Source: Escherichia coli (GTDB lineage Bacteria > Pseudomonadota > Gammaproteobacteria > Enterobacterales > Enterobacteriaceae). Taken from it: a stretch of DNA of 7,023 bases. The translations under genes and the position numbers were made by a program. The stretch lies in the NCBI RefSeq assembly GCF_003334785.1, contig NZ_QOWV01000037.1; one strand, 5' to 3'. Shown here in pieces: positions 1,045-1,082 of this stretch. Position 1 is the first letter of the stretch. Every line of letters starts with the position of its first letter. The notes beneath the pieces are model-generated. The model did no database searches. It was not told the origin of the DNA and was given only the letters and a program-made list of their open reading frames with translations.

Positions 1045-1082
1045 CGATCGATAAAACAGGTATCGATCGTTACTATCGATCG
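1045..1082 (+). promoter_or_regulatory. Phase-variation switch of agn43: three Dam GATC sites within the presumed OxyR operator
   Basis: GATC at 1046-1049, 1065-1068 and 1078-1081, each inside a CGATCG palindrome. A near-repeat TATCGATCGTT occurs twice. Three clustered GATC sites just downstream of the -10 are the known hallmark of the Dam/OxyR-controlled agn43 switch. Confidence 0.75.

Follow-up and report, generated by a model that had tools for sequence, protein, structure and literature searches.

The 7,023-nt stretch of Escherichia coli DNA analyzed here (the window) opens with an intact YeeP-like GTPase family gene at positions 55-927 on the plus strand, which has NCBIfam small-GTPase matches and whose open reading frame is listed from GTG 16, with an ATG at 55. 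This upstream gene is annotated as "GTPase family protein" in the genomes of TW10722, 300709 and WS4437A-1, and the yeeP pseudogene of K-12 is 97.3% identical to the window over 375-929. In TW10722, an IS100 element lies inside the GTPase gene (L002 2187-4133, against window position ~670), while the window copy is uninterrupted. The GTPase gene is followed by a promoter with a cluster of three GATC sites (1012-1082), an IsrC/IS102 leader and two remnants of a cah gene. Further downstream on the plus strand lie a dynamin family gene (2409-4802), an RdcB family gene (4799-5704) and a patatin-like phospholipase gene (5701-6771), each identified from its open reading frame, its NCBIfam matches and the TW10722 annotation. 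These three genes have overlapping stop and start codons and are on the same strand as cah, and a scan, together with a fold for terminators, found neither a terminator-like site nor a consensus promoter between the cah stop and the dynamin start (~2296-2408). They look like one operon, and cah could be transcribed together with it. The window is 99.9% identical to an island of the ETEC strain TW10722 that comprises the GTPase gene, the switch, cah (949 aa) and the dynamin, RdcB and patatin-like genes. In all three complete genomes (TW10722, 300709 and WS4437A-1), the island adjoins cadC, the GTPase gene flanks it and the 371-nt regulatory region (930-1300) is 100% identical to that of the window. 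TW10722 differs from the window by its intact 949-aa cah and by the IS100 in its GTPase gene, whereas 300709 and WS4437A-1 differ by other, larger cah deletions.

The gene behind the GATC cluster is broken. Its 5′ remnant (1299-2093, plus strand) encodes 264 amino acids that comprise the ESPR signal peptide, the first ~200 passenger residues and 8 out-of-frame codons before a stop. BLAST against TW10722 places the deletion junction at 2065-2068 (plus strand), in a 4-bp microhomology (GTTA), with 1850 bp of cah missing (L002 5529-7378) and the frame shifted; the 3′ remnant (2069-2298, plus strand), which BLAST aligns to K-12 flu and to TW10722 cah, holds the final 78 beta-barrel residues in a frame other than that of the 5′ remnant. 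The 264-aa product covers profile positions 1-257 of the 948 in NCBIfam NF033177 and scores 505 bits against a cut-off of 1200, the 3′ remnant covers positions 871-948, and positions 258-870 are absent, so that the locus holds two fragments in different frames in place of a full-length family member. Judged from its sequence, this cah copy is a pseudogene, dead as an autotransporter. The promoter thus has no functional Ag43-family autotransporter gene to control, which concerns the target gene and not the switch. The earlier note had spoken of a dead flu gene; it was right that the gene is broken, but the allele is of the cah type within the Ag43/Cah family: its remnants match cah of ETEC TW10722 at 99.9% identity, whereas identity to K-12 flu is ~84% over the first 520 nt.

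The deletion junction was absent from 5426 complete E. coli genomes. The exact 264-aa truncated Cah was called in one independent read-set assembly, in which the contig aligns to the window across the junction, and the deletion therefore exists in nature. This Logan contig, from run ERR1948969 (L003), encodes the truncated Cah in the part that aligns to the window (L003 1-1590 against window 1261-2286). To the left of window position 1261, which is inside the leader terminator, the contig continues into VasL-domain DNA that lies ~23 kb upstream in TW10722; it either lost the switch through a second deletion or was wrongly joined in assembly.

Upstream of the broken gene, the -35 hexamer TTGCGT (1012-1017) and the -10 hexamer TAGAAT (1035-1040) of the agn43/cah promoter lie on the plus strand with a 17-bp spacer, and TAGAAT is the same in K-12. 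The three GATC sites follow directly downstream of the -10 hexamer. GATC-I (1046-1049, in CGATCG 1045-1050) begins 6 bp past the hexamer, GATC-II is at 1065-1068 (in CGATCG 1064-1069) and GATC-III at 1078-1081 (in CGATCG 1077-1082), so that the start-to-start distances are 19 and 13 bp. The sites first noticed from the letters alone, at 1046, 1065 and 1078 and each within CGATCG, thus agree with our coordinates. The window holds three CGATCG in total, all in this cluster, and three CGATCG within 38 bp did not occur in any of 2000 dinucleotide shuffles. The three could in principle be chance palindromes (PvuI sites) with no regulatory role, since three plain GATC within 38 bp did occur in 328 of the 2000 shuffles (16%), which makes the plain spacing a weak argument alone, and GATC is not enriched in the window (24 observed against 29.8 expected). 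However, the same offsets recur in K-12 and in 118 of 122 homologous copies, and the Rfam IS102 model begins at the CGATCG cluster. Chance is already refuted by the homology and conservation data, and we give it practically no credence.

The earlier note had called TTGCGT/TAGAAT a good promoter. Its position just upstream of the GATC sites is as claimed, but the -35 hexamer matches the consensus TTGACA at 3 of 6 positions and a consensus promoter scan of the window did not call TTGCGT-17-TAGAAT. The promoter assignment therefore rests on the conservation of the hexamers described below, the scan having called nothing. In K-12 MG1655, the isrC annotation lies between the pseudogene yeeP and flu and begins at the G of GATC-I; from this annotated 5′ end we infer that transcription in the window starts at G1046. 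The arrangement is that of a sigma-70 promoter with a predicted operator over the -10 hexamer and the transcription start. Within 1043-1071, the GATC-I and GATC-II palindromes also form an 8-bp perfect inverted repeat (CGATCGAT ... ATCGATCG), which on the minus strand scores as terminator-like and is followed by TTTTATT. Folded as RNA, the leader has its GATC-I region base-paired with its GATC-III region at the 5′ end.

The alignment to the K-12 agn43 regulatory region that had been proposed as a check was run in an ungapped register; a gapped MAFFT alignment shifted the GATC sites out of register. The GATC sites occupy the same register as in K-12. The block from the -10 hexamer to GATC-I (1033-1049) is identical at 17 of 17 positions and that from GATC-II to GATC-III (1062-1082) at 19 of 21. 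Identity outside these blocks falls to 4 of 17 in the -35/-10 spacer, 4 of 12 between GATC-I and GATC-II (1050-1061) and 3 of 17 after GATC-III. The window type and the K-12 type are thus two deeply diverged regulatory lineages that agree only at the -10 hexamer and the GATC blocks, and in these blocks the window is homologous to the experimentally characterized K-12 region. The experiments on the switch were done in K-12 or with K-12-based constructs (PMC3764049, PMC4872104, PMC13337833). In the literature, we found no experiments on the window allele type, and the methylome papers searched for the Ag43-switch locus in non-K-12 strains gave generic statements only.

We next consider the binding sites for OxyR. 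The half-site consensus ATAGnTnnnAnCTAT (Toledano et al., as quoted in PMC2909390) was scored over 10 positions, and in the whole window only three 15-mers reach 8 of 10 matches, with starts at 1034, 1062 and 1066. Predicted half-site 1 (1034-1048, ATAGAATAAAACGAT, 8/10) overlaps the -10 hexamer and GATC-I, and predicted half-site 2 (1066-1080, ATCGTTACTATCGAT, 8/10) is bounded by GATC-II and GATC-III. Their centres are 32 bp apart, and the same pair is present in K-12. This centre-to-centre distance is canonical for reduced OxyR, as described at opvAB (PMC4856963), and the coordinates published for gtr give an equal 32-bp spacing, with GATC pairs 13 bp apart inside the half-sites (PMC2909390). 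Regulation of agn43 does not depend on the oxidation state of OxyR (PMC4856963, PMC2909390). Half-site 1 is identical to K-12 at 15 of 15 positions and scores 8/10 in all 122 copies, while half-site 2 varies in the population only at the 'n' positions 1070 and 1072-1074. The assignment of half-sites in the 32-bp register is our own prediction from the sequence rather than a published footprint. By analogy with K-12, OxyR would bind 1034-1080 in the source strain.

Conservation was examined in a metagenome scan that was anchored on the leader terminator and was not conditioned on the GATC sites. The scan gave 120 loci, which together with K-12, TW10722 and the window make up the set of 122 copies. 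All three GATC sites lie at +11, +30 and +43 from TAGAAT in 118 of the 122 copies. The set comprises ~100 copies of the window regulatory type and 20 K-12-type copies. In the 88 distinct alleles of the window type, the -35 hexamer is invariant and the -10 hexamer has one variable column, while the spacer is variable in 14 of its 17 columns. In the same alleles, the 20 consensus columns of the half-sites hold 7 non-major bases compared to 80 in the 10 'n' columns (Mann-Whitney p = 0.0026). As read from these alignments, the pattern is the footprint of a promoter and a protein-binding operator. The spacer itself (1018-1034) is far more variable among the 88 alleles than the neighbouring intergenic DNA, with the hexamers fixed, and the segment between the half-sites (1049-1065) shows 0.9% non-major bases in window-type alleles, yet it is unrelated to the K-12-type segment.

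These data bear on a further explanation, in which the window allele is a Dam-sensitive promoter but not a true OxyR-dependent bistable switch, the segment between GATC-I and GATC-II having diverged from K-12. The identity to K-12 of 4/12 over 1050-1061 is in keeping with it, as is the classical 7-bp-spacer register, in which the promoter-proximal half-site scores 2/10 in the window (hand count) against 6/10 in K-12. In the 32-bp register, however, both 8/10 half-sites are the same at their consensus positions in the two types, and the window type is the majority type in E. coli and shows the conservation of a protein-binding site, with the contacts fixed and the 'n' positions free. We therefore consider this explanation to be very unlikely.

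Four natural copies have lost one GATC each: L113 (GATC-III), L007 (GATC-II), L025 (GATC-I) and L045 (GATC-I). The genes of L113, L025 and L045 are full-length, and that of L007 runs off its contig; the four copies are candidates for altered switching bias.

The window regulatory type is widespread in E. coli. At a query coverage of at least 80%, it was found in 3446 of 5426 complete genomes, upstream of genes annotated Ag43/Cah, and the K-12 regulatory type is the minority among complete E. coli genomes. A search for the exact switch core in 100,044 species-representative genomes gave a single match (L128), a 1560-bp contig in a metagenome-assembled genome labelled Collinsella sp. This contig is 92% identical to window 654-1246 and is most likely E. 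coli DNA mis-binned into the genome of an actinobacterium.

The GATC cluster leads into an RNA of the IsrC/IS102 family (1044-1280, plus strand), which is the agn43/cah leader transcript. The Rfam model RF00124 matches over its full length (model 1-206 of 206) at 74.9 bits against a gathering score of 46 (E 1.5e-11), and K-12 isrC is in the same position. At its end lies an intrinsic terminator (1240-1276, plus strand), with a 12-bp G+C-rich stem at 1240-1267 followed by TTTTTTATT; it folds at -23.5 kcal/mol (z -6.2) and differs from that of K-12 at one loop base. Since IsrC is the leader, what had been called the leader terminator is the IsrC terminator. With a leader that is complete to its strong terminator, the transcription unit behind the switch is still whole. 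The earlier note had pointed to any transcript that escapes the leader terminator as the one still subject to phase variation. The terminator is there (1240-1276), but escape is not the only product to consider, as the main product would be the terminated IsrC/IS102 RNA. Flu expression is reported to be controlled via antitermination of IsrC (PMC5389530). A conserved leader peptide starting at ATG 1195 was considered and rejected, as other alleles lack this ATG. The cah frame is also open through the terminator hairpin as far back as an ATG at 1224 (window 1224-1298), which gives a 289-aa open reading frame; this ATG is probably fortuitous, K-12 being without it.

Taken together, these results make it very likely that 1012-1082 is a sequence-intact Dam/OxyR phase-variation switch of the Ag43/Cah family, which is intact since the deletion behind it is very recent. 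The agn43-type identity first proposed is borne out by every element that can be read from the DNA, namely the homology, the half-site spacing, the leader and the terminator. In K-12, the Dam/OxyR mechanism is established (PMC3764049, PMC4872104, PMC13337833), and by analogy the window allele would work as follows. The sigma-70 promoter TTGCGT-17-TAGAAT would fire from about G1046. In the OFF state, a reduced OxyR tetramer on 1034-1048 and 1066-1080 would cover the -10 hexamer and the start and repress transcription, and would at the same time shield the three GATC sites from Dam. In the ON state, Dam would methylate the GATC sites after replication and so exclude OxyR, which would allow transcription from about 1046; either state would then be inherited. 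The transcript would be the ~235-nt IsrC/IS102 leader, ending mostly at the terminator (1240-1276), and little of it may reach the gene remnant, the leader terminator being strong. Rare read-through would yield the 264-aa Cah fragment, a useless periplasmic product without a beta-barrel, and might go on into the dynamin-like operon, there being no terminator-like site in 2298-2409.

How much the intact switch says about selection depends on the age of the deletion. With the deletion and the IS100 of TW10722 set aside, 5 mismatches and 1 gap in ~6950 nt (~0.09%) separate the window from TW10722. So few differences from the intact TW10722 allele make the deletion recent, and at this divergence the 12 GATC bases would be expected to have taken up ~0.01 substitutions. 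The preservation of the switch is therefore uninformative on selection, as decay could not be expected in so short a time. The claim that the switch is preserved although the gene is broken thus holds as a description, but it carries no evolutionary weight.

Other copies show the same arrangement. Among the 99 copies with a complete open reading frame call (window included), 15 are truncated to less than 900 aa, some of which could be metagenome assembly errors, and all 15 keep the three GATC sites. Broken Ag43/Cah genes behind intact switches are common. The strains 300709 and WS4437A-1 each combine the 100%-identical regulatory region with a larger cah deletion of their own. In 300709 (L125 ~7100-7150), the break is at the exact left point of the window deletion (GGCGGTTA|) and is joined into an antirestriction gene; in WS4437A-1 (L124 ~6986), the break is at window position 1915 and is joined into a DUF4942 gene. 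At the shared breakpoint, the three partner sites are alike (CGGTTACC / CCGTTATCC / CGGTAACC; L126 ~4032 and ~7071 are involved), and this likeness suggests a microhomology hotspot or sequential deletions. One hit (H100) that had seemed to be a stand-alone switch without a gene was rejected, as IS200C sits between the leader and an intact agn43. In strain SW071620 (L127 4278-5009), IS200C lies directly after the leader terminator, with an intact switch and IsrC on one side of it and an intact agn43 on the other.

It has to be weighed whether the switch and leader are kept by selection, either for a phase-variable, trans-acting IsrC small RNA or for read-through control of the dynamin-like, RdcB-like and patatin genes, which are now 1.85 kb nearer the promoter. 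Such retention would fit with a switch that still heads a whole transcription unit from promoter to terminator, with the terminator-free and promoter-free interval (as scanned) between the cah stop and the dynamin start, with the cah deletions of three related strains, which differ but in each case leave the switch, the leader and 620-770 nt of cah in place, and with the three GATC sites in 15 of 15 truncated copies in the sample. On the other side, the sample is anchored on the leader, so that copies without leader or switch are invisible in it, and L003 may be a copy that lost both. Decay is not to be expected after so recent a deletion, the leader ends at a strong terminator, and a biofilm/motility screen saw no phenotype when IsrC was overexpressed (PMC4606813). 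Moreover, the match to dynamin paralogues elsewhere in E. coli begins only at window 2399, and these paralogues stand in other contexts with different upstream DNA. As the sample is leader-anchored and the deletion recent, no claim of selective retention is possible, and we regard this explanation as improbable. The same slim chance is given to the proposal that the orphaned switch is a self-contained, phase-variable IsrC small RNA gene, perhaps also with ON/OFF control of the downstream dynamin-like, RdcB-like and patatin genes via read-through. If it were true, the loss of an adhesin gene would have left its switch to control something else. A switch that outlasts its gene because the deletion is young remains our preferred explanation.

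The feature is a textbook agn43-type switch that is already known, with a sequence already present in hundreds of genomes, and the finding matters little beyond annotation. It does show that a reader of raw sequence can correctly recognize an agn43 switch. In a methylome of the source strain, unmethylated GATC sites at this locus would be no sign of a working adhesin. In the metagenome sample, about 1 in 7 Ag43/Cah copies has an intact switch but a broken gene, and counting agn43 promoters or switches therefore overestimates the number of functional adhesin genes. The locus would gain biological interest only if IsrC or the dynamin-like operon is phase-variable through the switch promoter.

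Among known systems, K-12 agn43 (flu) is the direct counterpart. It shares with the window the -10 hexamer, the three GATC offsets and the half-site register, followed by the IsrC leader with its terminator and then an Ag43-family gene. The two differ in the -35 hexamer (TTGCGT in the window, TTGTCC in K-12, at the same position) and in the context of GATC-I (CGATCG compared to CGATCA). No sequence relationship to K-12 is seen in the middle of the leader or in the 12 nt that separate GATC-I from GATC-II, and the structural gene behind the switch is broken in the window, unlike in K-12. The IsrC/IS102 family (RF00124) is matched in full from GATC-I to the terminator, with the difference that insertions in the variable middle make the window copy ~30 nt longer than the model; this RNA has no known trans-acting function. 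The gtr and opvAB switches of Salmonella are alike in that their OxyR half-sites are 32 bp apart, methylation blocks OxyR binding (PMC2909390, PMC4856963) and the switching is independent of the OxyR oxidation state, and gtr also has GATC pairs 13 bp apart inside a half-site (PMC2909390). The switch in the window does not belong to the gtr/opvAB type, however. Upstream of the promoter, those switches have 3-4 half-sites and four GATC sites, where OxyR can take alternative positions and so activate or repress, whereas the switch in the window has three GATC sites and two non-overlapping half-sites that overlap the -10 hexamer and the start; from this single predicted two-half-site operator, OxyR could only repress. 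The Lrp/Dam switch of pap is alike in its heritable ON and OFF states and in the competition of Dam with a DNA-binding protein at GATC sites. It differs from the window in its use of Lrp and PapI, in its two GATC sites 102 bp apart and in its two alternative binding regions, and it has no sequence relationship to the switch described here.
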